Assembly: GCF_044222345.1 (NCBI RefSeq)
Contig: NZ_JBGANL010000005.1
Coordinates: 66,784 to 90,783 of the forward strand
DNA: 24,000 bases
Source: Prosthecobacter sp.
Lineage (GTDB): Bacteria; Verrucomicrobiota; Verrucomicrobiia; Verrucomicrobiales; Verrucomicrobiaceae
Direction: 5' to 3'
Part shown: positions 4,202 to 14,369 of the stretch, one piece after another
Layout: every line of letters starts with the position of its first letter
Position numbering within the stretch: position 1 is the stretch's first letter
Notes under the pieces: generated by a model
What the model was told of the DNA's origin: nothing
Database searches by the model: none
What the model saw: the letters and a program-made list of their open reading frames with translations, nothing else
Translations under genes and position numbers: made by a program

Positions 4202-5584
4202 CTACAGTGTCTTCAGCAGCTTGTCGTGGATGCCGTCGAAGCCGCCGTTGCTGAAGACCACGATGACATCGCCCGTGTGAGTTTCCTGTTTCAGACGATT
4301 TACGATGGCGTCGGTGTCTGCTTCAAACCAGCAGGGCTTGCCGCGTGCCGTGACTGACTGCGCCACCTTGGCGGTGTCCAGGCGTTGATCTGCCGCGACT
4401 TTCTCCGGATTGGCCACGGCCGCGATGACGGAGCCATCGGCCTCGGTCAGTGCCTCGATCAATTCATTCTGCAGCACGTTGCGGCGGCTTGTGTTTGAGC
4501 GCGGTTCAAAAAGCGCCCACAGGCGGCGGCCGTTATAGCGCTGGCGAAGGCCGCGCAGCGTCTCGCGAATGGCAGTCGGGTGATGACCGAAGTCATCGAT
4601 GATCGTGATGCCGTGGGCGGTGCCACGCTCTTGCTGACGACGGCGGATGCCGCGGAAACTGGCCAGGCCGGCGCGGATTTCATCATCACTCAAGCCGGCA
4701 AACCGGGCCGCACACACACACATGGCCGCGTTGCGCGCATTGAATTCGCCGACCATCGGCACTTCGAACGCAACGCCGTTGATTTCGAACTGCGTGGTCT
4801 CAGGTGTCACGCCGGTGATCGTGATGCGGAAATCGCAGTCTGGTCCCAGGCCCACGGTCTTGAGCGGGGCCGGGCATTTCGCACGCAGAGAGAGGCAGTT
4901 GGGATCGTCGCCGTTGATCAGGACAAGGCCGTTGCGAGGAACCGTGTTGAGGAAGCGCTGAAAGGAGAGCAGGATTTCATCGAGGTCACGGAAGATGTCC
5001 GCGTGATCGAACTCGATGTTGTTCACGATGGCGCACTCGGGCAGGTAGTGGAGGAACTTGCTGCGCTTGTCGAAGTAGGCGGTGTCGTACTCGTCGCCTT
5101 CGATCACAAACAGGTCCGAGTGGGTGAAGCGTGCGCCGGATTCGAAATTCTCAGGCACGCCGCCAATCATGAAGCCGGGGTTTTTGCCGGCGTGCTCATA
5201 GATCCACGCCAGCATCGTGGTCGTGGTTGTTTTGCCGTGCGTGCCGCTCACCACAAAGCTGCGTTTGCCCTGGATGACTTCGCGCTTCAACATCTCCGCC
5301 ATGGAGACGTAGGGCAGCTTTTTCTCCAGCAGGGCTTCGAGTTCGGGATTGCCGCGTGAGATCGCGTTGCCCACGACATACACATCCGCCTGCTGCGGCA
5401 GGTTCTCCGGATTGTAGCCTTCGGTCACGGTGATGCCTGCATCACGCAGCACATCGCTCATGGGCGGATAGACTGAATTGTCGGAGCCGCTGATGGTGTG
5501 ACCGAGGGCGCGCAGCGCGACTGCGGTGGAGCCCATTGCCGTGCCGCAGATGCCGATGAAATGAATGTGCTTGGGAGATGCCAT
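4202..5584 (-). CDS. mpl: UDP-N-acetylmuramate:L-alanyl-gamma-D-glutamyl-meso-diaminopimelate ligase (murein peptide ligase)
   Basis: The N-terminus 'IHFIGICGTAMGSTAVALRALGHTISGSDNSVYPPMSDVL' closely parallels E. coli Mpl. It has the Mur-ligase P-loop 'GTHGKTTTTTM', and 460 aa is typical for Mpl. Confidence 0.85.
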   Translation of the reverse strand: MASPKHIHFIGICGTAMGSTAVALRALGHTISGSDNSVYPPMSDVLRDAGITVTEGYNPENLPQQADVYVVGNAISRGNPELEALLEKKLPYVSMAEMLKREVIQGKRSFVVSGTHGKTTTTTMLAWIYEHAGKNPGFMIGGVPENFESGARFTHSDLFVIEGDEYDTAYFDKRSKFLHYLPECAIVNNIEFDHADIFRDLDEILLSFQRFLNTVPRNGLVLINGDDPNCLSLRAKCPAPLKTVGLGPDCDFRITITGVTPETTQFEINGVAFEVPMVGEFNARNAAMCVCAARFAGLSDDEIRAGLASFRGIRRRQQERGTAHGITIIDDFGHHPTAIRETLRGLRQRYNGRRLWALFEPRSNTSRRNVLQNELIEALTEADGSVIAAVANPEKVAADQRLDTAKVAQSVTARGKPCWFEADTDAIVNRLKQETHTGDVIVVFSNGGFDGIHDKLLKTL

Positions 5585-5769
5585 GGAAAGAGGGGCGCAC
5601 GGTTCAAGCCCAGGCGCAGACGTGAACTAAAGCAGGGCTTTTTGCCCCCTGCTAAAAGAATTTCACTTGGGCGGGAATAATCGCAGCAGCGGGGGCTCAC
5701 ACGATGCGACGGCTCGAACCCACGCAGCCGGCAGAACTAACAAACCAACTAACGCACTCCACACCTACC

Positions 5770-6027
5770 ATGAGCACCAAGCACATCATCGCCGCCGCCG
5801 CCTTCACCGGTCTCCTCTCCGGCGCCTACGCCGCCCAGACCACCAGCACCCAGAAGGCCGCCAGCCTCGGCGTCTCCATCGAAAAGATGGCTGACAAAGG
5901 CCAGCACGCCTGCAAGGGACACAATGCCTGCAAGGGACAGGGCGGCTGCAAGTCCGGCGACAACGGCTGCAAAGGCAAGAACTCCTGCAAAGGCAAAGGC
6001 GGCTGCAACACCATGCCGAAGAAGTAA
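5770..6027 (+). CDS. Sec-signal Cys-repeat precursor peptide (bufferin/HvfA-like RiPP metallophore precursor candidate)
   Basis: 86 aa. Signal peptide 'MSTKHIIAAAAFTGLLSGAYA|AQ' with an AxA-type site. The C-terminal core 'ACKGHNACKGQGGCKSGDNGCKGKNSCKGKGGCNT' has six Cys in two duplicated 3-Cys modules. It lies immediately upstream of DUF692/DUF2063/DoxX genes. An in-frame ATG at 5704 is an alternative start that would add 22 aa before the signal peptide. Confidence 0.7.
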   Translation: MSTKHIIAAAAFTGLLSGAYAAQTTSTQKAASLGVSIEKMADKGQHACKGHNACKGQGGCKSGDNGCKGKNSCKGKGGCNTMPKK

Positions 6028-6040
6028 GCCAAATCGATTT

Positions 6041-6084
6041 CCGCAGCCACACGACACCTCCCGCGTGTGGCTGCGGTTGTCTTT
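6041..6084 (+). terminator. intrinsic-terminator-like hairpin (candidate attenuator) between precursor gene and DUF692 gene
   Basis: 'ccgcagccacacg' (6041-6053) pairs perfectly with 'cgtgtggctgcgg' (6064-6076). That gives a 13-bp GC-rich stem and a 10-nt loop, followed by the T-rich 'ttgtcttt' (6077-6084). It starts 14 nt after the precursor stop codon. Confidence 0.5.
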
Positions 6085-6108
6085 AACCCAGGCCTTCCCA
6101 ACCCAGCA

Positions 6109-6951
6109 ATGCCCGCCAACCCTCACAACGGTCACACCGATCTCGGCATCGGTCTTGGCCTCCGAGTGCCGCACTACCGGCACATTCTGGAGAAAAAGCC
6201 CGTCTGTGACTGGTTTGAGATCATCTCCGAAAATTTCATGGTCGATGGCGGCCGACCGCTGGAGGTGCTGGACAGTATTCTGGAGCAGTATCGCGTCGTG
6301 CAGCACGGCGTCGCTATGTACTTTGGCAATGCCGATCCTCTGAACCGCGATCACCTCAAAAAACTCAAGCGTCTGGTGAAGCGCACCAACACGCCCTGGC
6401 TCTCCGATCACCTCTGCTGGGGCAGCGTGGGTGGCCGGTGCTCGCATGATCTCCTGCCCATGCCTTACACGACGAGCGTGGCCAGACACACGGCTGAGAA
6501 GATCAGGCAGGCGCGCGATTTTCTCGAAGTGCCCATCTGTGTCGAAAATGTGAGCAGCTATGCCGAATTCACCCAGAACGAGATGACCGAATGGGAGTTC
6601 CTCAACGAAGTCGTCGAGCAAGCCGATTGCGGCATCCTCCTGGATGTAAACAATATCTACGTTTCCTCTCAAAATCACGGCTTCGATCCCTTCGAGTATC
6701 TTCGTGCAGTGCCGCATCATCGTGTGGGCCAGATTCACATCGCGGGTCACACACGGTATGAAAACGTCATCCTTGACACGCACGATCATCCCGTGCCCGA
6801 TCCCGTGTGGGATCTCTACGCCGAGGCGATCAAACTTTCCGGCAGCACCGCCACGCTGCTCGAATGGGACGACAAAATCCCCAGCTTCGAAGACGTTCAC
6901 GCCGAAGCGCTCAAAGCCAGCCGCTATCTCCATGAGCACGCGCACGCCTAG
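6109..6951 (+). CDS. DUF692 family multinuclear non-heme iron enzyme (MbnB/BufB/HvfB-like)
   Basis: Family-typical motifs run along the whole length: 'LGIGLGLR', 'DWFEIISENFM', 'VQHGVAMYFG', 'WLSDHLCW', 'HDLLPMPYT', 'VENVSSY', 'GILLDVNNIYVSSQNHGFDP', 'GQIHIAGH', 'ILDTHDHPVPDPVW' and 'TLLEWDD'. I chose the start at ATG 6109, downstream of the hairpin. The track ORF begins at GTG 6067, inside the hairpin. Confidence 0.9.
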   Translation: MPANPHNGHTDLGIGLGLRVPHYRHILEKKPVCDWFEIISENFMVDGGRPLEVLDSILEQYRVVQHGVAMYFGNADPLNRDHLKKLKRLVKRTNTPWLSDHLCWGSVGGRCSHDLLPMPYTTSVARHTAEKIRQARDFLEVPICVENVSSYAEFTQNEMTEWEFLNEVVEQADCGILLDVNNIYVSSQNHGFDPFEYLRAVPHHRVGQIHIAGHTRYENVILDTHDHPVPDPVWDLYAEAIKLSGSTATLLEWDDKIPSFEDVHAEALKASRYLHEHAHA

Positions 6952-7804
6952 CCAGATCCGCACCAATGCAGACCTGCGCCACCTGCAGCGCACGATGGCT
7001 GCCGCACTCATGCAGCCGCTTTCGCGTCAGGATGGCATGAATGCCAGAACGCAGGTCGATTTCATCACGCCAAACGATCGCATGAGCGGTTTCGATCGGC
7101 TCGAAATCTACGCCCGCCAGTATTGGTTCCGTCTGCTCGACTGCCTCTACGATGATTATCCTGCACTGCGCGTTTTTCTGGGCGAGCGTCGCTTTCACCA
7201 GCTGTGCCGCGACTACCTCGCGCAGCATCCCAGCAATTCCTGGACTCTGCGAAATCTTGGATCCGCCCTCCCCTCTTTTATTACGGATCTCAAGGCGCGT
7301 GATATTACCCGAGTTGAATGGGCGCAGACGCTTGCCTTTGACGAGGTGTTGAAAAAGCCGCTGCGGATCGATGATCTGCTTGGCACTGACCCCTCCACGC
7401 TTCGTCTGGGAATTCAGCCCTGCGTCGTGCTTCTAGAGATCGACCATGCGGTCGATCACTTCATCACCGCGATGAACAAGGCCGACGCCGATGTACGTGG
7501 TTCAGCCAGCCAGGCCATGTCCGAGGCGCCCACCCGTGACAGCATTGCCAAAGCACCGAAATTGAAACGTGAGCGTGTGCATCTGGTTGTCCATCGCCAC
7601 GACAACATGCTGTACTTCAAGCGCCTCTCCCTGGAGTCTTTCGCCATGCTAGCCGCACTGCGGGATGGCCTCACGCTGGCAGATGCCGTCGAACTCGCAC
7701 TTGCCCAAGCTGCTCCGGACACTGACTGGCCAGCACAAATCCGCGAATGGTTTACCGAGTTCTCTCAGCTCGGGTGGTTCGTCAAATCTCCCCAAAAATC
7801 ATGA
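6932..7804 (+). CDS. DUF2063 family protein (MbnC/BufC/HvfC-like partner of DUF692)
   Basis: N-terminal 'LRHLQRTMAAALMQP...FDRLEIYARQYWFRLLDCLYDDYPALRVFLGERRFHQLCRDYLAQHPSNSWTLRNLG' fits DUF2063 as I remember the family. ATG 6932 overlaps the DUF692 gene by 20 nt. This is the conserved position after DUF692. Confidence 0.8.
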   Translation: MSTRTPSQIRTNADLRHLQRTMAAALMQPLSRQDGMNARTQVDFITPNDRMSGFDRLEIYARQYWFRLLDCLYDDYPALRVFLGERRFHQLCRDYLAQHPSNSWTLRNLGSALPSFITDLKARDITRVEWAQTLAFDEVLKKPLRIDDLLGTDPSTLRLGIQPCVVLLEIDHAVDHFITAMNKADADVRGSASQAMSEAPTRDSIAKAPKLKRERVHLVVHRHDNMLYFKRLSLESFAMLAALRDGLTLADAVELALAQAAPDTDWPAQIREWFTEFSQLGWFVKSPQKS

Positions 7805-8259
7805 AACCTTGGACCCTGGCCAACACTCTCCTTGATCGCACCGCAGGTTATCTGGCAGATCCTTTTCTGCTCGGCATCCGCCTCTACTGGGGCTGGCAGT
7901 TTTTCCAGACTGGCAAAGGCAAGCTCAGTGACATCAGCGTACCCACCGCCTTCTTCACGGAGCTCGGCATTCCCTTTCCACAGCTCAATGCCTGCATGGC
8001 TGGTTGCACCGAGTGCCTTGGTGGGCTGCTGCTTCTGGTTGGCCTCTTTTCCCGAGTCACCTGCGTGCCCCTCATCTTTACCATGCTCGTCGCCTACAGC
8101 ACGGCGCACCTCGATGTGGTGAAGACGATCTGGGCGGATGCCGACTCCTTCGTCAGCGCGCCGCCGTTTCTTTTCCTGTTCGCTGCCGTGACGGTCTTCA
8201 TCTTTGGCCCAGGCAAGTTCTCGGTCGATGAACTGCTGCGCAGGTGGAAGGCCAGATGA
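7801..8259 (+). CDS. DoxX family membrane protein
   Basis: 152 aa with four hydrophobic helices. 'LGIRLYWGWQFFQTGKGKL' and 'LGIPFPQLNACMAGCTECLGGLLLLVGLFSRV' are DoxX-like. The start ATG overlaps the DUF2063 stop (ATGA at 7801-7804). Confidence 0.8.
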   Translation: MKPWTLANTLLDRTAGYLADPFLLGIRLYWGWQFFQTGKGKLSDISVPTAFFTELGIPFPQLNACMAGCTECLGGLLLLVGLFSRVTCVPLIFTMLVAYSTAHLDVVKTIWADADSFVSAPPFLFLFAAVTVFIFGPGKFSVDELLRRWKAR

Positions 8260-8266
8260 ATGCATC

Positions 8267-8620
8267 TCAAGGCATTCCCGCCTCCTGCTTCAATGCTTCA
8301 CGGATATGCTGGAGTGCTTCGGGGGAAAGAGCGGAAAGGATGTCTGTGTTTTCTTCGTGGCAGGCTGTGCAACGCAGAATGACGCGGAGGTTCTCGAGCT
8401 GCCTCGGCAATGGGCGGCAGACATGGCAGAGCAACGAGTGCAGGTGAAATCGCAGGTTTTCAGTCAAGCTGAGCGGGCGGTCGAGACGCAGAGATGTGAG
8501 CACGGCGAACTGACGGCAGGAGAGGCCAAGTAGCTTCATCATAGGCCACATCATGGCTTGCATGATCCGGTAGATCAGGCCCGGCGCGGGTGGTGCGTGT
8601 GAGTGTGCGGAAGTTTTCAT
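8267..8620 (-). CDS. cytoplasmic zinc-binding (ZAS-type, zf-HC2) anti-sigma factor
   Basis: C35-x25-H61-x3-C65-x2-C68 ('HSLLCHVC') matches the ZAS ligand pattern. A second 'CTACH' cluster lies near the C-terminus, and there is no convincing TM helix. ATGA overlap with the upstream sigma gene (8617-8620). Internal Met starts (e.g. 8542) are possible. Confidence 0.65.
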   Translation of the reverse strand: MKTSAHSHAPPAPGLIYRIMQAMMWPMMKLLGLSCRQFAVLTSLRLDRPLSLTENLRFHLHSLLCHVCRPLPRQLENLRVILRCTACHEENTDILSALSPEALQHIREALKQEAGMP

Positions 8621-9174
8621 GGGGTGATGCCGTGATATTGCAGACAGGCGCGAAGTTGGTGTCTGGCACGGGTGAGGAGCACGGCAGCGCTGCCAGGGGT
8701 GACTCCGGCGGCGGCGGCGGCTTCACCGACGGGGAGATTGTCCACTTCTCGCAGGGTGAAAAGCAGACGCAGGCGCTCGGGCAGGCGCTCGATGCAATTA
8801 CGCACCCAGTCGAGGACTTCGGAGCGTTGCGCTGTCTCGCCGGGAGATTCATTGAGCAGTTCGACGCCGTAGTTGGGATCAATACGCCAGGAACCGCGCG
8901 AATCGAACAATGTATCAAGCGGGTCGGTTCCCCAGTCGTTCTTTTCGTCTCGCCCAACGGATTGCGCGGTAGGGGTGCGTCTGGCACTGCGGAAGTGGTC
9001 GAGGATTTTGAACTTCATGATGCCGGTGAGCCAGGTGGAAAGGGTGGAACGACCATCGAAGTCATCGCGCTTTCGCCATGCGATGATGAGAGTGTCCTGC
9101 ACGAGGTCCTCTGCGTGCTGGTGGTCCTGGAGCCGCTGATAGGCATGATGGTAGAGTCGTGGTGCTTCGCTCAT
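8617..9174 (-). CDS. ECF-family RNA polymerase sigma factor
   Basis: Sigma-70 region 2 is 'HAEDLVQDTLIIAWRKRDDFDGRSTLSTWLTGIMKFKILDHFR'. The region 4 HTH is 'LRLLFTLREVDNLPVGEAAAAAGVTPGSAAVLLTRARHQL'. I set the start at Met22 of the track ORF (MSEAPRLYHH). Starts at 9201 or 9237 are not excluded. Confidence 0.85.
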   Translation of the reverse strand: MSEAPRLYHHAYQRLQDHQHAEDLVQDTLIIAWRKRDDFDGRSTLSTWLTGIMKFKILDHFRSARRTPTAQSVGRDEKNDWGTDPLDTLFDSRGSWRIDPNYGVELLNESPGETAQRSEVLDWVRNCIERLPERLRLLFTLREVDNLPVGEAAAAAGVTPGSAAVLLTRARHQLRACLQYHGITP

Positions 9175-9475
9175 CAGGATGTCGGCGGTAATTAGACACA
9201 TGCGGTTGAACATGGCGAAACAAAACACGCCCGCCACTGCGATGACAGGCGTATCCCGGAATAAACAGAAGGTGAGTGCCGGGTCTGCGCGCTGTAGTTG
9301 TACGAATGGCAGGTGGACTTGCCGTTGGGGAGTGTAAGCGCGAGCAGCGCTGCGATACGGAGAAGGCGGGCCGGGATGTGGATGTGCTTCATGTCTGGGT
9401 GCTTGTCGTTTTTGTCACCGCTTCGACAAGTGCGTGATTTGGAGGGCAAGTGTTGGTCGTTCGAAGCCGCGGGGT

Positions 9476-9518
9476 GTTAACGAGTTTTTTTTTGAAGCGG
9501 ACGAAGAAACTCGTTAAC
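9476..9518. promoter_or_regulatory. perfect 12-bp inverted repeat (candidate operator) in divergent intergenic region
   Basis: 'gttaacgagttt' (9476-9487) and 'aaactcgttaac' (9507-9518) are exact reverse complements separated by 19 nt. The left arm runs into a T9 tract (9485-9493). No U-run follows on either strand, so it is not a canonical terminator. Confidence 0.5.
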
Positions 9519-9520
9519 AT
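9492..9520 (+). promoter_or_regulatory. candidate sigma70-type promoter for the 9550-12966 operon
   Basis: 'ttgaag' (9492-9497), a 17-nt spacer, then 'taacat' (9515-9520). Each hexamer matches 4/6 of TTGACA/TATAAT. A T-tract lies upstream, and it sits ~30 nt upstream of ATG 9550. The right palindrome arm covers the spacer and -10. Confidence 0.3.
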
Positions 9521-9549
9521 TGGATTCACCTCTGACGGCTCATGCGGGT

Positions 9550-9687
9550 ATGAAATCATCACCTGCTTGCTCTAATGAAAAAAAATGCGGTCCATGCAGC
9601 CGTGGGCTGTGCCCCGGAACCATTATACTCGGCGTGGTCCTGCTTATGCAGGGCTGCATGGCGTTGTACCATTGGATGGTTGGCTGA
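9550..9687 (+). CDS. small (45 aa) Cys-rich single-pass membrane peptide, hypothetical
   Basis: My own translation: MKSSPACSNEKKCGPCSRGLCPGTIILGVVLLMQGCMALYHWMVG. It has an N-terminal C-x5-C-x2-C-x4-C cluster followed by one hydrophobic helix. It is below the 60-aa ORF-track cutoff. The first 11 codons are AT3-rich, atypical for this genome, so coding status is uncertain. Confidence 0.35.
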   Translation: MKSSPACSNEKKCGPCSRGLCPGTIILGVVLLMQGCMALYHWMVG

Positions 9688-9723
9688 GCATCACCTGCTG
9701 AAACTATATCCGAGCACCGCTTC

Positions 9724-9882
9724 ATGAAAGCCGCACTCTCCCTGTTTATCCGACGTCATTACGGATTCCTGCTCATTGTCGTTGGAGTCATCGCCTACGT
9801 CAGTGTTTCCGGCATGTTCGGTGCCTGCCCGATGTGTCGCGCCGTCACGAAGTCGGTGGGTTTGCCCTCGCTGACCAAATGA
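9724..9882 (+). CDS. small (52 aa) membrane protein with YgaP/DUF2892-like G-x-C-P motif
   Basis: My own translation: MKAALSLFIRRHYGFLLIVVGVIAYVSVSGMFGACPMCRAVTKSVGLPSLTK. The hydrophobic helix followed by 'FGACPMC...G' resembles the DUF2892 C-terminal motif. Codon usage is GC3-rich. Its TGA (9880-9882) overlaps the ATG (9879-9881) of the next gene. Confidence 0.5.
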   Translation: MKAALSLFIRRHYGFLLIVVGVIAYVSVSGMFGACPMCRAVTKSVGLPSLTK

Positions 9883-10451
9883 TGCTGAACATGATTGATG
9901 ATTCCGTAGCCACAGACAAGCCGCCATGCCTGTTTGAGGAAAACAACGCCATGCTGCTCTCGGGTGTTGCAGTGCTGGCCGGGCTGCGGCCGGAAGTGTA
10001 TGCATGCGTGGATTCACGCTGCCTCGGTGGCAGCATCGGCGGGCATGTGCGGCACTGTGTGGAGTTCTACCGCAGTTTTCTCACGGGACTAGACACGGGC
10101 TTTCTGGATTACGATGCACGGGCGCGTGATCCAAGGCTGGAAAATGACCCGAATTCGGCCTGCGAAGTGATGCGCCAGACGGCCAGGTGGCTGAGCGTGG
10201 CGGCTAGCCATGAGGACACGGATCGCAGCCTCAATATCGTGGAAAACCATGATGGAGGAGAGCCCGTTTGGTCGCCTTCAAGCGTGGGCCGTGAGCTGCG
10301 ATTCCTGTTGAGCCACACAGTGCATCACTACGCGCTCATCGCCATCCTGCTGCGGCTGCGAGGAATCAAGACGCCAGAAGGGTTTGGCATAGCTCCGTCC
10401 ACATTGCGCTATCGGAAGCGTCCAACCCCCTCTACACCATGTGCACGGTAA
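9879..10451 (+). CDS. DinB-fold (DinB_2-like) putative metalloenzyme
   Basis: 'GGSIGGHVRHCVEFYRSFL' and 'LLSHTVHHYALIAILLRLRG' look like the first and last His-bearing helices of the DinB four-helix bundle. I set the start at ATG 9879, coupled to the upstream stop. The track ORF starts at 9834. Confidence 0.6.
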   Translation: MMLNMIDDSVATDKPPCLFEENNAMLLSGVAVLAGLRPEVYACVDSRCLGGSIGGHVRHCVEFYRSFLTGLDTGFLDYDARARDPRLENDPNSACEVMRQTARWLSVAASHEDTDRSLNIVENHDGGEPVWSPSSVGRELRFLLSHTVHHYALIAILLRLRGIKTPEGFGIAPSTLRYRKRPTPSTPCAR

Positions 10452-11176
10452 GCTGGTCATACGGGGCCAGCGGGGGGCTGGCGCTATGCTTCAACCGCGA
10501 TGAGCAGCATGTGCGTGCCGCAGGATTGCCGGTGCAGATATGGGCGGGTGGTTTTCTCGCTCCGGTGGATGCCGAGGCAGGCGGGACGTGGCTGGCGGTG
10601 CGTCAGGATGGAATCTTGCTCGCCTTGTTGAACCATTATCCGCCAGGGTTCGCTCCATTTGCGAATGGTGTCAGCCGTGGCGCTTTGATTCCGGTGCTGG
10701 CGGCCCGGATTGAACGGCCCGGACTGCGTGCGCTGCGAGATTTGGTTTCAGCGCGCATGAATCCATTCCGCCTACTGCTGCTGGCGCCTGATGGCGAGCG
10801 CAGGGTGTTCACCTGGGATGGCAGCGCGTTCACCGGCCTGCGGGTCATTCGTGAATCGACGGGCATGCTCACCAGTTCATCTTGGAATACTGCGGCCGTG
10901 GTGGCGGCACGGCATGTGGCATTTCGTGGGTGGCGCAAAAGTCATCCGTCGCCAGCTTTGGCAGACCTGTGTGGGTTTCACTGTCAGGGGCAGCACCCGA
11001 GAGGCGGTGCCTGGGCCGTGTGCATGAGCCGGGAAGATGCGCGCAGCGTGAGCCTCAACACGCTGCATATTGCGGAGGGTCGTGCGGTGATGACGCACCA
11101 GATCCGCAAGCGGGGGGCGGACGGATTCGATGCCGACAGCCACACGATGCAAATACGCGTCTCCAACCGTAAATGA
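10439..11176 (+). CDS. NRDE family protein (TANGO2-like, N-terminal Cys)
   Basis: It begins 'MCTVSW' and carries the eponymous 'CFNRDE' motif at residues 17-22. Length of 245 aa is typical. It overlaps the DinB gene by 13 nt. Confidence 0.8.
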   Translation: MCTVSWSYGASGGLALCFNRDEQHVRAAGLPVQIWAGGFLAPVDAEAGGTWLAVRQDGILLALLNHYPPGFAPFANGVSRGALIPVLAARIERPGLRALRDLVSARMNPFRLLLLAPDGERRVFTWDGSAFTGLRVIRESTGMLTSSSWNTAAVVAARHVAFRGWRKSHPSPALADLCGFHCQGQHPRGGAWAVCMSREDARSVSLNTLHIAEGRAVMTHQIRKRGADGFDADSHTMQIRVSNRK

Positions 11177-12966
11177 ATATACCCCGGCCCTTCGTCAACA
11201 GCGCTGAACTACTGCCACAGGGGGCGCTGCGCCAGATTTATCGGCTTTTACTGCGCCCGCTGGTAGAACGGGCCTGCGGTTTTCATGCGCTCAATGCCAT
11301 CTATGCGCGCCTGCAAGGCCCGTACATGACGCCCCAGCGCTTTTGTGAGGAAGGTTTGCAGCATCTCGGGGTGGAGGTGGCGAGGCCCACGGATGATGAA
11401 CTTGGTCCGCTGCGCGACTGGAACGGGCCACTGGTGGTGATGGCGAACCACCCCTTTGGCGGCGCTGAGGCCCTGGCGATGATGCTGCTGCTTGAACGCA
11501 TCCGCCCAAGTGGCTGGCGCATGTTTGCCAACCGCGTGCTGGCTTCCACGCCGGAACTGGCGCCGCACCTTATTGCGGTGGATCCGTTTGCCCGGTTTCA
11601 GTCTGCCAACCGCCAGGGTATCAAGCAGGCGCAACGGTTTCTGGCAGATGGCGGCGTGCTGGGAGCATTCCCTGCCGGGCGCGTCTCTGGCTGGAGCGTG
11701 GCTTATGATTGTGTGCTCGACACACCGTGGAGCGATCATCCTGCGCGCCTCGCTGCCGCCACCGGTGCCGCCGTGGTGTTGCTGCAGGTGCCGGGCTGTA
11801 ACAACGGTCTGTTTTTGAAAGTGCCCATGTGCTGGCCGCGACTCCGTGCGCTCTTTCTCCCCCGCCAGATGTTACGATCCAACAAGCCCGCCATGCGCTT
11901 TCATATTGGCCCGGTGATGGACCCCGCGACGGCGGGCAGTCTCGTTCGTGCGGGAAATGCAGGAGCCAAGTTTCATGCACGCTGCCAGCTGCTTGCCGAG
12001 CTTCAAAACGAACCGCCGACGAGCAACGTGTCCGCAGTGCCGGACATCGCTCCGGCAGGTGATCCAATTGGGCTTCGAGAGGAGGTGGACGGGCTGAGCA
12101 GTGGTGCCGCACTCCTTTTTGAGCAGGGGCGTTTCACCGCGCTGCTGTTTCAAAAAGCCGAAGCCTCGAATCTGTTTCATGAGCTGTCACGGCTGCGGGA
12201 GATCACCTTCCGCGCATCCGGGCAGGGCGGTGGAGCAGCGGTGGACATCACCCCCGAGGACAACTACTACCACCAGCTCGTGCTGTGGGATCGCGAGAGG
12301 CAGCGTCTCGTCGGAGCCTATCGACTTGGTTTTACAGAAGAGGTGCTGCGGGAGCGTGGGCAGGAGGCGCTCTATTCGAGCCACGTCTTCCACATGCGTC
12401 CGGAGTTTTTCCAGCGCATCGGTCCGGGCATTGAGTTGACGCGTTCCTGCATACATCCCGACTACCAGCGTGATCCGCTGGCGCTGGCGCTGCTGTGGCG
12501 CGGATTGGGCAAGATCGTGGCCGCGCGTCCGCAAATACGCTGTCTGTTTGGCTCTGTCACCGTGCCCGCCACCTTGAGCGATGCTTCCCGAGCCATCCTC
12601 GTCGAACATTTGCGGCGGCATCATTCCGATGTGGCCGAGTTGCTGCCACTGGTGGTTCCAAAGCAGTCTTTTCAGCCCCCCGGCATTGCTCATCGGCTAA
12701 TTGCCGAGGCTCATCGGAACGACCCCATCGAGACGCTGCGTGATACAATTCGCTCTGCCGATGGCACTCCGCGCAGCATCCCGCCGCTCATCCGCCACTA
12801 CCTTTCCATGAACGCCAGGTTCCTCGCCTACCACGTTGAGCAAGACTTTGGCAACGCCCTATACTGTCTGTTGCGTGTTGACCTGTCGAAGGCTCCGCCC
12901 GCGCATCTGAACCGCTTTGTTGGCAGGGAAGCCGCTGCTGCACTGCTGAGAAAAAAAACACCATGA
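11173..12966 (+). CDS. fused lysophospholipid-type O-acyltransferase / GNAT N-acyltransferase (OlsF-like aminolipid synthase)
   Basis: The N-terminal half has 'VVMANHPFGGAEAL' (acyltransferase His motif) and 'GGVLGAFPAGRVS'. The C-terminal half has the OlsB/hemolysin-like GNAT pattern 'LREITFRASGQGGGAAVDITPEDNYYHQLVLWDRERQRLVGAYRL...ALYSSHVF...IELTRSCIHPDYQR...ALLWRGL'. ATGA overlap with the NRDE gene (11173-11176). Confidence 0.75.
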   Translation: MNIPRPFVNSAELLPQGALRQIYRLLLRPLVERACGFHALNAIYARLQGPYMTPQRFCEEGLQHLGVEVARPTDDELGPLRDWNGPLVVMANHPFGGAEALAMMLLLERIRPSGWRMFANRVLASTPELAPHLIAVDPFARFQSANRQGIKQAQRFLADGGVLGAFPAGRVSGWSVAYDCVLDTPWSDHPARLAAATGAAVVLLQVPGCNNGLFLKVPMCWPRLRALFLPRQMLRSNKPAMRFHIGPVMDPATAGSLVRAGNAGAKFHARCQLLAELQNEPPTSNVSAVPDIAPAGDPIGLREEVDGLSSGAALLFEQGRFTALLFQKAEASNLFHELSRLREITFRASGQGGGAAVDITPEDNYYHQLVLWDRERQRLVGAYRLGFTEEVLRERGQEALYSSHVFHMRPEFFQRIGPGIELTRSCIHPDYQRDPLALALLWRGLGKIVAARPQIRCLFGSVTVPATLSDASRAILVEHLRRHHSDVAELLPLVVPKQSFQPPGIAHRLIAEAHRNDPIETLRDTIRSADGTPRSIPPLIRHYLSMNARFLAYHVEQDFGNALYCLLRVDLSKAPPAHLNRFVGREAAAALLRKKTP

Positions 12967-13044
12967 ATCGGGAATAAACTCCCAAGACCCATACTCCTAC
13001 ACTCAACCTACCTGCATGGATGCGCTGATAAGACTCACAAAAGC

Positions 13045-13644
13045 ATGGAACTCACGTGTCACTTTGGCATTGAAATGCCTGCAACTCGCCCGATACCTCG
13101 ACGCGTGACTGACTCCGTGCCCAGCTTTGAGCAGATCGTGGACTCCCACTATCAGGGACTCTACCGCTTTGCCTTGAGCATGTGCCGACGTGAGGCCACC
13201 GCGCAGGATCTCGTGCAGCAGACCTTTCTGCAATGGGCAAAAAAAGGGCATACGCTGCGGGATGCTTCGAGGGTGAAGACCTGGTTGTTCACAACCATCT
13301 ACCGTGAGTGGCTTGGCATTGCCCGTCGCGAGAAAAAATACGAGGAGGTCGAATTTGAACCCGAGCAGCACGGTGCCATGCAGCACCATGATGATGGCGA
13401 AAACCCACGCGTAGACAGCGCCACGCTGCAAACGGCGCTCGAAGAACTGGAGCCAAACTACCGCGCACCGCTGGTGCTTTTTTACCTCAAGGAGCTATCC
13501 TACCGAGACATTGCCGAGACATTGGGTGTTCCCATCGGCACCGTCATGTCCCGCCTCTCCCGCGCCAAAGACAGCCTGCGCAGCATTCTCCGCCGCCTTG
13601 AAGAATCCGCCCCCTCCAACATCATCCCCTTATCCGCCTCGTGA
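13045..13644 (+). CDS. ECF-family RNA polymerase sigma factor (second copy)
   Basis: Region 2 is 'AQDLVQQTFLQWAKKGHTLRDASRVKTWLFTTIYREWLGIARR'. Region 4 is 'YRAPLVLFYLKELSYRDIAETLGVPIGTVMSRLSRAKDSLRSIL'. Alternative start at ATG 13075. Confidence 0.85.
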   Translation: MELTCHFGIEMPATRPIPRRVTDSVPSFEQIVDSHYQGLYRFALSMCRREATAQDLVQQTFLQWAKKGHTLRDASRVKTWLFTTIYREWLGIARREKKYEEVEFEPEQHGAMQHHDDGENPRVDSATLQTALEELEPNYRAPLVLFYLKELSYRDIAETLGVPIGTVMSRLSRAKDSLRSILRRLEESAPSNIIPLSAS

Positions 13645-14369
13645 ACCGCGAAGAAGCCAGACTCGAACTCGATGCCACGACGCTCCGCCCTCAGGACGCG
13701 TCGCCTGAGGCGCGTGCCATGGCCGGGAGCGATCCCGAGCTGGGTGCATGGCTGAAAAAACGCACCGAGTTTGATCAACAGGTCGCCGATGCCTTCGCTG
13801 CATCCTTGCCGGCTGGATTGCGTGAGAGCATTTTGCAAAATTCCAGGAAGCCCGTCAGGCGTCCCATCCGCTGGGTGCTGCCTGCATTGGCCGCTGCTGC
13901 CGCTGCCGTCGTGCTCAGTTGGACGATGTTCTGGCCCGTGAGCAATAGCATGCCCGGCTGGCAGGCTGAGTCGCTCGCCGCCGTGACGAAAGTCGAGTAC
14001 GGAATGCTCAAGGTGGATCACATGTCCCGAGATTTTGAAGCCATCAAAAAAATGCTCGTGACGGATCAATCTCCGACACCGCTGCGTCTGCCTGGCACGG
14101 TGGGGAGCATGCCCGTGCTGGCCTGCAAATGCATCAAAGTTGCTGGTCGCAAGGCATCCATCATTTGCTTTGAAATTGAGCCTGGCAAAGAGGCGCATCT
14201 GGTCGTGGTGGAAAACACAGGGCTCACCGGTTTGCCGCCTCAACTTCAGCCGCAGTTCAAAACGAGCAAAAACTGGAACATGGCCAGTTGGAGCGATGGC
14301 AGCCAAACCTTTCTGCTCGCGACGACGGCAGATGAAGCGGCGTTGAAAAAACTGTTTGGGCTGGCTTGA
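13641..14369 (+). CDS. putative single-pass membrane anti-sigma factor
   Basis: The GTG start overlaps the sigma stop (GTGA at 13641-13644). It has a ~75-aa cytoplasmic N-domain, one TM ('WVLPALAAAAAAVVLSWTMFWPV') and a ~145-aa periplasmic domain. The call rests on position and topology; there is no ZAS motif. Confidence 0.55.
   Translation: MNREEARLELDATTLRPQDASPEARAMAGSDPELGAWLKKRTEFDQQVADAFAASLPAGLRESILQNSRKPVRRPIRWVLPALAAAAAAVVLSWTMFWPVSNSMPGWQAESLAAVTKVEYGMLKVDHMSRDFEAIKKMLVTDQSPTPLRLPGTVGSMPVLACKCIKVAGRKASIICFEIEPGKEAHLVVVENTGLTGLPPQLQPQFKTSKNWNMASWSDGSQTFLLATTADEAALKKLFGLA

Follow-up and report, generated by a model that had tools for sequence, protein, structure and literature searches.

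The 24-kb stretch of DNA analyzed here (the window) comes from a Prosthecobacter-like Verrucomicrobium. It contains four closely packed plus-strand genes, which encode a small Cys-rich precursor peptide (bufA), a DUF692 enzyme of the MNIO family, which groups oxidative enzymes dependent on multinuclear non-heme iron (bufB), a DUF2063/PME1 partner protein (bufC), and a DoxX membrane protein (bufD/doxX). The coordinates of these genes and of the other features discussed are collected in Table 1. As described below, the gene products, their homologues and the conserved gene order make it very probable that the locus is a biosynthetic operon for a Buf2-type bufferin, that is, a captophorin of the "Cys-Lys" group.

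Table 1. Features of the locus. Positions refer to the window, except for those preceded by a label (L010 and so on), which refer to the homologous genome locus of that label.
Feature	Position	Strand	Remarks
ECF-type promoter motif, GGGAATAA-N15-CTCACA	5673..5701	+	upstream of bufA
bufA2-type precursor	5770..6027	+	85 aa
GC-rich hairpin of 13-14 bp (6041-6076), then UUGUCUUUAA	6041..6086	+	between bufA and bufB
bufB, MNIO (DUF692) enzyme	6109..6951	+	280 aa
bufC, DUF2063/PME1 partner protein	6932..7804	+	290 aa
bufD/doxX, HvfX family membrane protein	7801..8259	+	152 aa
ZAS-type anti-sigma gene	8267-8620	minus	HxxxCxxC motif; in 4.8-kb block
Second ECF sigma gene	8617-9237	minus	in 4.8-kb block
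Membrane ORF, 52 aa	9724-9882		CPMC motif; in 4.8-kb block
DinB-like gene	9834-10451		in 4.8-kb block
TANGO2-like gene	10439-11176		in 4.8-kb block
597-aa protein	11173-12966		Acyltransf_2 and Acetyltransf_5 domains; last gene of 4.8-kb block
Second promoter motif copy, GGGAATAA-N16-CTCCTA	12970..12999	+	46 nt upstream of ECF sigma gene
ECF sigma factor sigma2	13045..13644	+	TIGR02937 90.7 (cut-off 42.9); Sigma70_r2 and r4_2 present
Anti-sigma factor of sigma2	13641..14369	+	242 aa; overlaps sigma gene by 4 nt
Motif copies before doxX	L010 9805-9832; L021 8532-8559; L022 5382-5409; L046 8189-8216; L056 8272-8300; L028 5341-5369

The four-gene cluster and its conservation

Gene callers on four independent, 100% identical assemblies reported the same products of 85, 280, 290, and 152 amino acids. 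The open reading frames (ORFs) and these independent calls agree with the four genes and boundaries given in the original prediction, and the coordinates likewise bear out its 20-nt overlap between bufB and bufC (6932-6951) and its ATGA overlap between bufC and doxX (7801-7804). Only its outer start had to be corrected: at 5704 lies merely the earliest ATG of an extended reading frame, and the precursor gene starts at 5770, because homologues begin at MSTKH and the predicted -10 box ends at 5701. An antisense ORF (5749-7011, minus strand), which was reported by no gene caller, was set aside as a by-product of the high G+C content.

By inspection, residues 1-21 of the precursor are a Sec signal peptide, with K4, a hydrophobic segment at residues 6-18, a cleavage site between AYA and AQ, and conserved A10, A11, G14, and G18. 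The mature peptide of 64 amino acids is basic (pI 9.6) and includes 12 Lys, 12 Gly, and 6 Cys. Its Cys core (residues 46-79) reads H-x-CKGxNxCKGxGGCKSGDNGCKGKNSCKGKGGC. A database search with the precursor yielded 3958 homologues. The best matches with a named source came mostly from Verrucomicrobiota and Acidobacteriota, with single examples from Planctomycetota and Woeseiaceae, and the compact 6-6-7-6-6 subtype found in Verrucomicrobiota, Acidobacteriota, and Planctomycetota dominated the best matches. The 6-6-7-6-6 Cys spacing was constant among the matches listed, and versions with 6, 8, or 12 Cys occurred, those with 12 being duplicated forms, which to judge from these Cys counts is the BUF_6/12Cys pattern. 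The precursor of P. fluviatilis KACC 12649 was 98% identical to that of the window, and the flanking regions were approximately 81% identical at the DNA level.

Three homologues of the precursor are assigned to Buf2 by Antoine et al. 2025 (PMC12452194; Table S1, sheet Fig1C, column "Buf2 (yellow)"), namely WP_078815796.1 (P. debontii, 77% identical), WP_138087239.1 (Phragmitibacter flavus, 74% identical), and MBL8115333.1. The same work catalogued Opitutus terrae and Koribacter versatilis with Buf_6-12Cys, MNIO, DUF2063, and DoxX, and NACKG has been given as a commonly occurring motif (PMC13097082). The Cys residues of the precursor always occur as C-K-G or C-K-S and never as K-C-G, and EGKCG repeats are absent. 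A Pfam scan gave no DUF2282 match at E ≤ 0.01, and the six Cys residues follow a pattern other than that of the four in Buf1. The original prediction, which had described a CKG-repeat peptide outside the DUF2282 type, was thus right about what the precursor is not; the peptide is, however, no undescribed type, as it belongs to the published Buf2 family. All 21 members of the window family that were tested matched the NCBIfam model NF050166 (Cu_RiPP_BufA2), with a best E-value of 7e-13.

As the canonical BufA2 reference, we used three plasmid-borne proteins from Legionella, Thiothrix, and Pseudomonas, which score 80-98 bits on NF050166. Cys I-V of the window precursor align with those of the three reference proteins at an identical 6-6-7-6 spacing. 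In 90% or more of 65 family members, each of Cys I-V is followed by Lys, giving five conserved Cys-Lys sites, whereas the three canonical sequences show Cys-Lys solely within Cys II-V. A PDB sequence search with the precursor profile returned nothing meaningful.

Two further observations concern precursors from other loci. In many 12-Cys members, the N-terminal region contributes a 13th Cys, located 17-33 residues ahead of the core (P0045, P0054, P0056-P0058, P0061, P0062, P0070, P0081, P0083, P0092, P0098, P0108, and P0113 in our collection), which would fit lipoprotein signal peptides; such signal peptides have been reported for approximately 16% of Buf2 precursors. On a Legionella pneumophila plasmid (L086), a DUF2282 (Buf1-type) precursor gene at 4640-4924 follows canonical bufA2-bufB-bufC, so that a single enzyme pair may act on precursors of two families in this case.

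The bufB product matched PF05114 (MbnB_TglH_ChrH) at 353.7 bits, covering positions 1-262 of the 263-position profile. It also exceeded the cut-off of the NCBIfam model MNIO_BufB NF050167 ("MNIO family bufferin maturase"; 344.9, cut-off 310) and stayed under the NCBIfam cut-offs for HvfB (249.7 vs 360), MbnB (TIGR04159; 42.6 vs 325), ApyH, and ChrH. The closest solved structure was 3BWW, a Histophilus DUF692 protein (E 6e-49). Nine residues (H66, H101, E146, D179, N182, H210, D223, H225, and E252) were invariant in 72 homologues and are putative iron ligands; their spacing appears to match that of the iron ligands of MbnB. At the last of these positions, the enzyme reads E252-W-D254-D255, with D254 present in 72/72 homologues and D255 in 67/72, and the HvfB-like 3BWW has E-R-D-F at this site. 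MNIOs of the Cys-Lys group have an Asp beside the catalytic Asp, where Lys-Cys enzymes have Phe (the FonB-Phe250 site) (PMC13097082). Judged by its residues, the D254-D255 pair is the signature of the Cys-Lys group, and it is paired with Cys-Lys motifs at Cys I-V of the precursor.

The bufC product matched PF09836 (DUF2063) over residues 18-117 with 64 bits (threshold, 27.2); in the N-terminal domain, its identity to BufC proteins from canonical Buf2 clusters was 31-35%. Its AlphaFold2 model, built on 45 homologues, had a predicted local distance difference test (pLDDT) score of 87 and a predicted template modeling (pTM) score of 0.81. The best Foldseek matches of the model in the PDB were 3DEE (DUF2063 protein NGO1945) and TglI (8HCI_A), the partner of the MNIO TglH, both with a probability of 1.0. 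The C-terminal domain gave weak matches (Foldseek probability, 0.3-0.5) of the type of the leader-binding recognition element (RRE) of RiPPs (peptides made by ribosomes and then modified post-translationally), such as TbiB1. The score on NCBIfam HvfC (28.6) was under the cut-off of 142, and a PDB sequence search with bufC gave nothing meaningful. The doxX product scored 68 bits on PF07681 (DoxX) and narrowly exceeded the cut-off of the NCBIfam HvfX family (81.3 vs 80); DoxX is dispensable in the Caulobacter Buf1 system. With these results, the profile and structure searches confirmed the DUF692/MbnB call originally made for 6109-6951 (full length on PF05114, BufB cut-off passed), the calls of a DUF2063 partner (PF09836 score and Foldseek matches), and that of DoxX (PF07681 and HvfX scores).

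To survey gene linkage, 80 genome loci were collected by precursor sequence alone; they originated from Verrucomicrobiota, Acidobacteriota, Planctomycetota, and one Eremiobacterota genome. Among the 74 loci with at least 1.5 kb of downstream sequence, bufB followed on the same strand within 1.5 kb in 70 (95%; median gap, approximately 120 nt), and the precursor gene stood without an adjoining bufB in 4. In 70 loci the downstream sequence reached 3.5 kb or more; of these 70, 67 had the A-B-C order and 54 (77%) the A-B-C-D order, with doxX after bufC. This gene linkage is far beyond chance, and the genes are thus co-conserved in related genomes, the point that the original prediction had wanted checked. 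Its assignment to the Sec-exported gig/Hvf/bufferin class with MNIO, DUF2063, and DoxX also holds, given the NCBIfam and Pfam scores, the homologues, and the linkage. The cluster therefore belongs to a kind already described and catalogued (Buf2 bufferin, Cys-Lys captophorin) and is not a new precursor class.

Promoter motif, sigma factor genes and hairpin

The bipartite motif GGAATAA-N15/16-YTCHNA, of the type recognized by extracytoplasmic function (ECF) sigma factors, had exactly two matches in the window (5674-5701 and 12971-12999; 0/100 shuffles), one upstream of bufA and the other upstream of the ECF sigma gene that we call sigma2. For bufA, transcription is predicted to start at about 5706-5712, with a 5' untranslated region of approximately 60 nt. 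The upstream alignment of the three closest relatives was uninformative because the sequences are 88% identical, and the motif was recognized from the wider locus set. Twenty-six Verrucomicrobiota loci with diverged spacers have the same motif 90-160 nt upstream of bufA, and it is kept in the doxX-sigma spacers of L006 and L007, which are themselves divergent in sequence. A sigma-70 consensus scan found no promoter before bufA. Rfam returned nothing for the window or for 5500-6200 at E ≤ 1, so the conserved 5' region does not correspond to any known riboswitch. In several Verrucomicrobiota loci, mostly from Opitutaceae, a further GGAATAA-N15/16-CTC copy stands just before doxX (Table 1), which suggests that doxX may be transcribed separately within the same sigma regulon.

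Buf2 loci from Acidobacteriota and Eremiobacterota carry TGTAACC(TT)-N14/15-ACTC 100-210 nt upstream of bufA (L033, L039, L043, L048, L052, L059, L060, L070, L072, L073, L075, L080, and L084). The TGTAACC(TT) box equals the -35 element of the SigF site in C. crescentus (GTAACC-N16-CGAA), and among the 10 such loci with enough flanking sequence, 8 have an ECF sigma gene adjoining the cluster. In the window itself, the region between mpl and bufA contains a short GC hairpin (AGGGC-TTTTT-GCCCC, 5634-5648) that all three closest relatives conserve in full. It is located upstream of the promoter motif of bufA and within the 5' leader of mpl, which is divergent.

Orthologues of sigma2 that are 86-92% identical follow doxX after approximately 70 nt in the closest relatives, L006 and L007, and orthologues of 62% and 49% identity stand right after doxX in the more distant L011 and L074, respectively. 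The anti-sigma gene is co-conserved with sigma2 in L006-L008, L011, L028, and L074. On the basis of this linkage and of the two motif copies, sigma2 is probably the regulator of the buf operon and of itself. The anti-sigma factor showed a weak DUF3379 match and was assigned to no Pfam or NCBIfam family; it is predicted to be a single-pass membrane protein with a periplasmic C-terminal domain. Its residues C162, C176, H186, W217, and S218 are invariant in orthologues down to 26% identity, and C162, C176, and H186 could plausibly form a metal-sensing triad. The original prediction mentioned neither this linked pair nor the promoter that it shares with the operon. Across the collection, an ECF sigma gene adjoins the buf cluster in 21/65 informative loci. 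According to a published survey (PMC12452194), sigma genes are found with Buf1 clusters and not with those of Buf2; the sigma genes next to these Buf2 loci mean that the statement needs qualifying for these phyla.

By DNA synteny, window positions 8240-13043 have no counterpart in L006 or L007, so that an insertion of approximately 4.8 kb appears to separate doxX from sigma2 in this lineage. The block carries a divergent pair of ECF sigma and ZAS-type anti-sigma genes, followed by the four reading frames listed in Table 1, of which the last may possibly encode a bifunctional ornithine-lipid synthase. Because the sigma/ZAS pair (8267-9237) is carried by the inserted block, it is not part of the conserved unit. 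It was the regulator first considered for the buf genes and was rejected, being absent from relatives and inside the insertion.

The intergenic region between bufA and bufB folds into a hairpin with a minimum free energy of -31.2 kcal/mol (z = -5.1; 0/200 shuffles folded as well), which also gave a terminator-like match. Hairpins at least as strong as -20 kcal/mol were found within 90 nt of the bufA stop codon in 63/75 loci, compared with 20/75 in the upstream control. Their stem sequences are unrelated among loci and many have U-tracts, so that it is the structure that is kept across phyla. A hairpin after the precursor gene is the usual RiPP arrangement for an excess of precursor mRNA. The hairpin found here is probably a partial terminator or a 3'-end stabilizer that would keep the precursor mRNA above the enzyme mRNA. 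A related metagenome-assembled genome (L008) has a second bufA copy at 6465-6860, with 90% DNA identity to window positions 5769-6076 including the hairpin. With a GGAATAA promoter of its own, this copy sits immediately upstream of the orthologue of sigma2, so that two precursor genes accompany one enzyme set.

Predicted product and alternative explanations

From these features, the following pathway can be proposed. Metal stress in the envelope would release sigma2 from its membrane anti-sigma factor, and sigma2 would then drive the two GGAATAA-N15/16-CTCNNA promoters, before bufA and before its own gene. The strong hairpin after bufA would let precursor mRNA probably exceed enzyme mRNA. In the cytoplasm, the multi-iron oxidase BufB and the DUF2063/RRE-like BufC are expected to oxidize precursor Cys residues to 5-thiooxazoles, with a loss of 4 H per Cys. 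This chemistry is carried over from C. vibrioides Buf1 and Buf2 and from fontiphorin (PMC11626156, PMC13097082), and it replaces the thioamide-type methanobactin chemistry of the original prediction, since 5-thiooxazole is what DUF2063-dependent MNIOs are expected to form. The peptide would be exported to the periplasm by Sec and cut by signal peptidase after AYA21; the resulting Lys/Gly-rich peptide of 64 amino acids would chelate copper there, and DoxX would act as an accessory membrane protein.

In C. vibrioides Buf2, the -4 Da modification is on Cys II-V, and Cys I and Cys VI form a disulfide (PMC11626156). By analogy, the most likely product has Cys54, Cys60, Cys67, and Cys73 as thiooxazoles and a Cys48-Cys79 disulfide (-18 Da). 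Five thiooxazoles would also be possible, because the compact subtype has Cys-Lys at five positions. The predicted monoisotopic mass of the 64-amino-acid core is 6409.03 Da when unmodified, 6402.98 Da with disulfides only, 6390.89 Da with four thiooxazoles and the disulfide, 6388.87 Da with five thiooxazoles, and 6384.84 Da with six.

Several points weigh against the assignment of the locus to a copper-binding Buf2 bufferin. The precursor scored 35.6 bits (E 8e-9) on the NCBIfam BufA2 model NF050166, under the cut-off of 60, and 18.5 on Pfam DUF7640, where the threshold is 28.1. The distance between Cys V and Cys VI is 6 residues, compared with 13 in canonical BufA2, and the canonical C-terminal tail is missing. 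Because of this shifted Cys VI and missing tail, the modification pattern of C. vibrioides Buf2 is not confidently transferable. An AlphaFold2 model of the precursor, based on a 65-sequence alignment, had no confident fold (pLDDT, 55) and was left unused for fold searches. In addition, sigma2 stands 4.8 kb from doxX in this genome, and the 24-kb window holds no other copper-resistance gene. Finally, the metal specificity, the transcription start, and the pairing of sigma2 with its promoters are all points that we infer for this lineage.

The absence of a copper gene from the window also bears on the possibility that the same system serves a target other than copper, such as Au, Hg, Cd, chromate, or oxidative or sulfur stress, or that its peptide acts as a general periplasmic thiol/metal buffer. 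Gold, chromate, and cadmium elicit responses from homologous gig and sigF-dependent operons (PMC3511200), MerC-Buf2 fusions exist (PMC12452194), the role of DoxX is not established, and the Cys/Cys/His residues of the anti-sigma factor would suit several metals or redox sensing. We nevertheless consider a non-copper target unlikely: the only Buf2 tested, that of C. vibrioides, is induced by Cu but not by Fe, Zn, or Mn and protects against Cu, and every characterized MNIO-PME1 product binds Cu (PMC13097082). A maturation unlike that of C. vibrioides Buf2, with five or six Cys converted to thiooxazoles, no disulfide, and a metal site that is multinuclear or of higher capacity, can be entertained tentatively. 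The Lys conserved after all of Cys I-V is consistent with it, as the three canonical sequences have Cys-Lys at no position outside Cys II-V, which are the residues modified in C. vibrioides Buf2; so are the Asp that bufB retains and that is proposed to contact this Lys, and the deletion of the loop with the canonical Cys VI. On the other hand, Cys I and Cys VI remain invariant and line up with the disulfide pair of canonical BufA2, and the low-confidence precursor model has short strands at 46-48 and 79-81, where a Cys I-Cys VI clasp would place them.

Regulation of the operon by the divergent sigma/ZAS pair in place of sigma2 is suggested by its position, 7 nt from the doxX stop codon, and by the bufferin and gig clusters known to lie beside sigma genes of their own. 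The closest relatives lack this pair and keep the bufA promoter (upstream region 88% identical), the block that carries it has no counterpart in L006 or L007, and no correctly oriented bufA-type motif lies upstream of the pair; this regulator is thus very improbable. Still more remote is the idea that the peptide is an unmodified, metallothionein-like periplasmic protein and that the MNIO and DUF2063 proteins act on another substrate. Such a peptide would be in keeping with a precursor score under the curated family cut-offs and with the minority of precursor genes that stand alone, as at 4 of our 74 loci and likewise in PMC12452194. Against it, bufB is linked in 95% of loci with fixed order and spacing across four phyla, bufB carries the Cys-Lys specificity signature matching this very substrate, and the operon has no other Cys-rich ORF.

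A Buf2-type bufferin operon under sigma2 therefore agrees best with these data. The further proposal that the compact 6-6-7-6-6 subtype is a functionally distinct bufferin is doubtful in its full form, in which the product would have five or six thiooxazoles, no structural disulfide, and possibly more than one metal ion, and would be controlled by a previously undescribed ECF module, made up of the GGAATAA-N15/16-CTCNNA promoter and an anti-sigma factor whose Cys-Cys-His triad is invariant and periplasmic, acting as the primary periplasmic copper sensor of these poorly studied soil phyla.

These results leave the current picture of bufferins unchanged, and their practical value is modest. What is new is a compact precursor subtype missed by the curated models, a conserved attenuator-like hairpin, and a candidate regulon defined by an ECF sigma/anti-sigma pair. 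Because the precursor family lies under the BufA2 cut-off, the RefSeq homologues that we looked up are still named "hypothetical protein"; among the records looked up, soil Verrucomicrobiota and Acidobacteriota members were recorded as "hypothetical protein" or "low-complexity protein", an annotation gap. The natural variant with five Cys-Lys sites could serve to test Cys-Lys as a rule of substrate selection by MNIOs, and the promoter motif, the putatively autoregulated ECF sigma factor, and the anti-sigma factor with conserved Cys/Cys/His make up a testable regulon.

Comparison with known systems

Methanobactin (MbnABC) shares with the window cluster the MNIO TIM barrel superfamily with a multi-iron site and the oxidation of Cys to a copper-binding heterocycle. 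In the NCBIfam scan, bufB fell far short of the MbnB equivalog TIGR04159, and there was no MbnC or MbnA match; the cluster also lacks a transporter. Methanobactin is a secreted chalkophore with oxazolone and thioamide groups, whereas the window product is predicted to be a Sec-exported small periplasmic protein in which 5-thiooxazoles are expected.

The captophorins of the EGKCG or "Lys-Cys" group (oxazolin/HvfABCX, fontiphorin, and gonophorin) likewise combine an MNIO, a DUF2063 protein, and HvfX/DoxX with a repetitive Lys/Gly/Cys-rich precursor, and their 5-thiooxazole chemistry is that expected for the window product. They differ in the motif, which is C-K-G and not K-C-G in the window precursor, and in their 17-residue EGKCG repeats, which the latter lacks. 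The window enzyme scores under the HvfB cut-off and has D-D where the HvfB-like 3BWW has D-F. A NACKG substrate was not processed by FonBC (PMC13097082).

The bufferin 1 and gig operons (C. vibrioides buf1ABCD with sigF-nrsF, and gig of Cupriavidus and Legionella) have the A-B-C-DoxX arrangement with neighboring ECF sigma/anti-sigma genes, together with Sec export and the periplasmic copper buffering predicted for the window peptide. Unlike these systems, the window has a precursor without DUF2282, a single-pass anti-sigma factor without an NrsF match, and a GGAATAA-N15/16-CTC promoter in place of GTAACC-N16-CGAA.

The closest counterpart is bufferin 2 of Caulobacter vibrioides (bufA2B2C2, CCNA_02999-03001). 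The window cluster differs from it in having doxX, which is not present in C. vibrioides buf2, and in a linked sigma/anti-sigma pair that is not SigF/NrsF. Compared with canonical Buf2 precursors, that of the window has Cys VI 6 and not 13 residues after Cys V, has no C-terminal tail, shows five conserved Cys-Lys sites where they have three or four, and falls under the NCBI BufA2 cut-off. Both systems nevertheless have a six-Cys, C-K-G precursor with a Sec signal encoded directly upstream of a BufB-type MNIO and a DUF2063 protein, and the window cluster also shares the identical Cys I-V spacing of canonical BufA2, the Asp next to the catalytic Asp of the MNIO, and, as predicted here, control by an ECF sigma factor.

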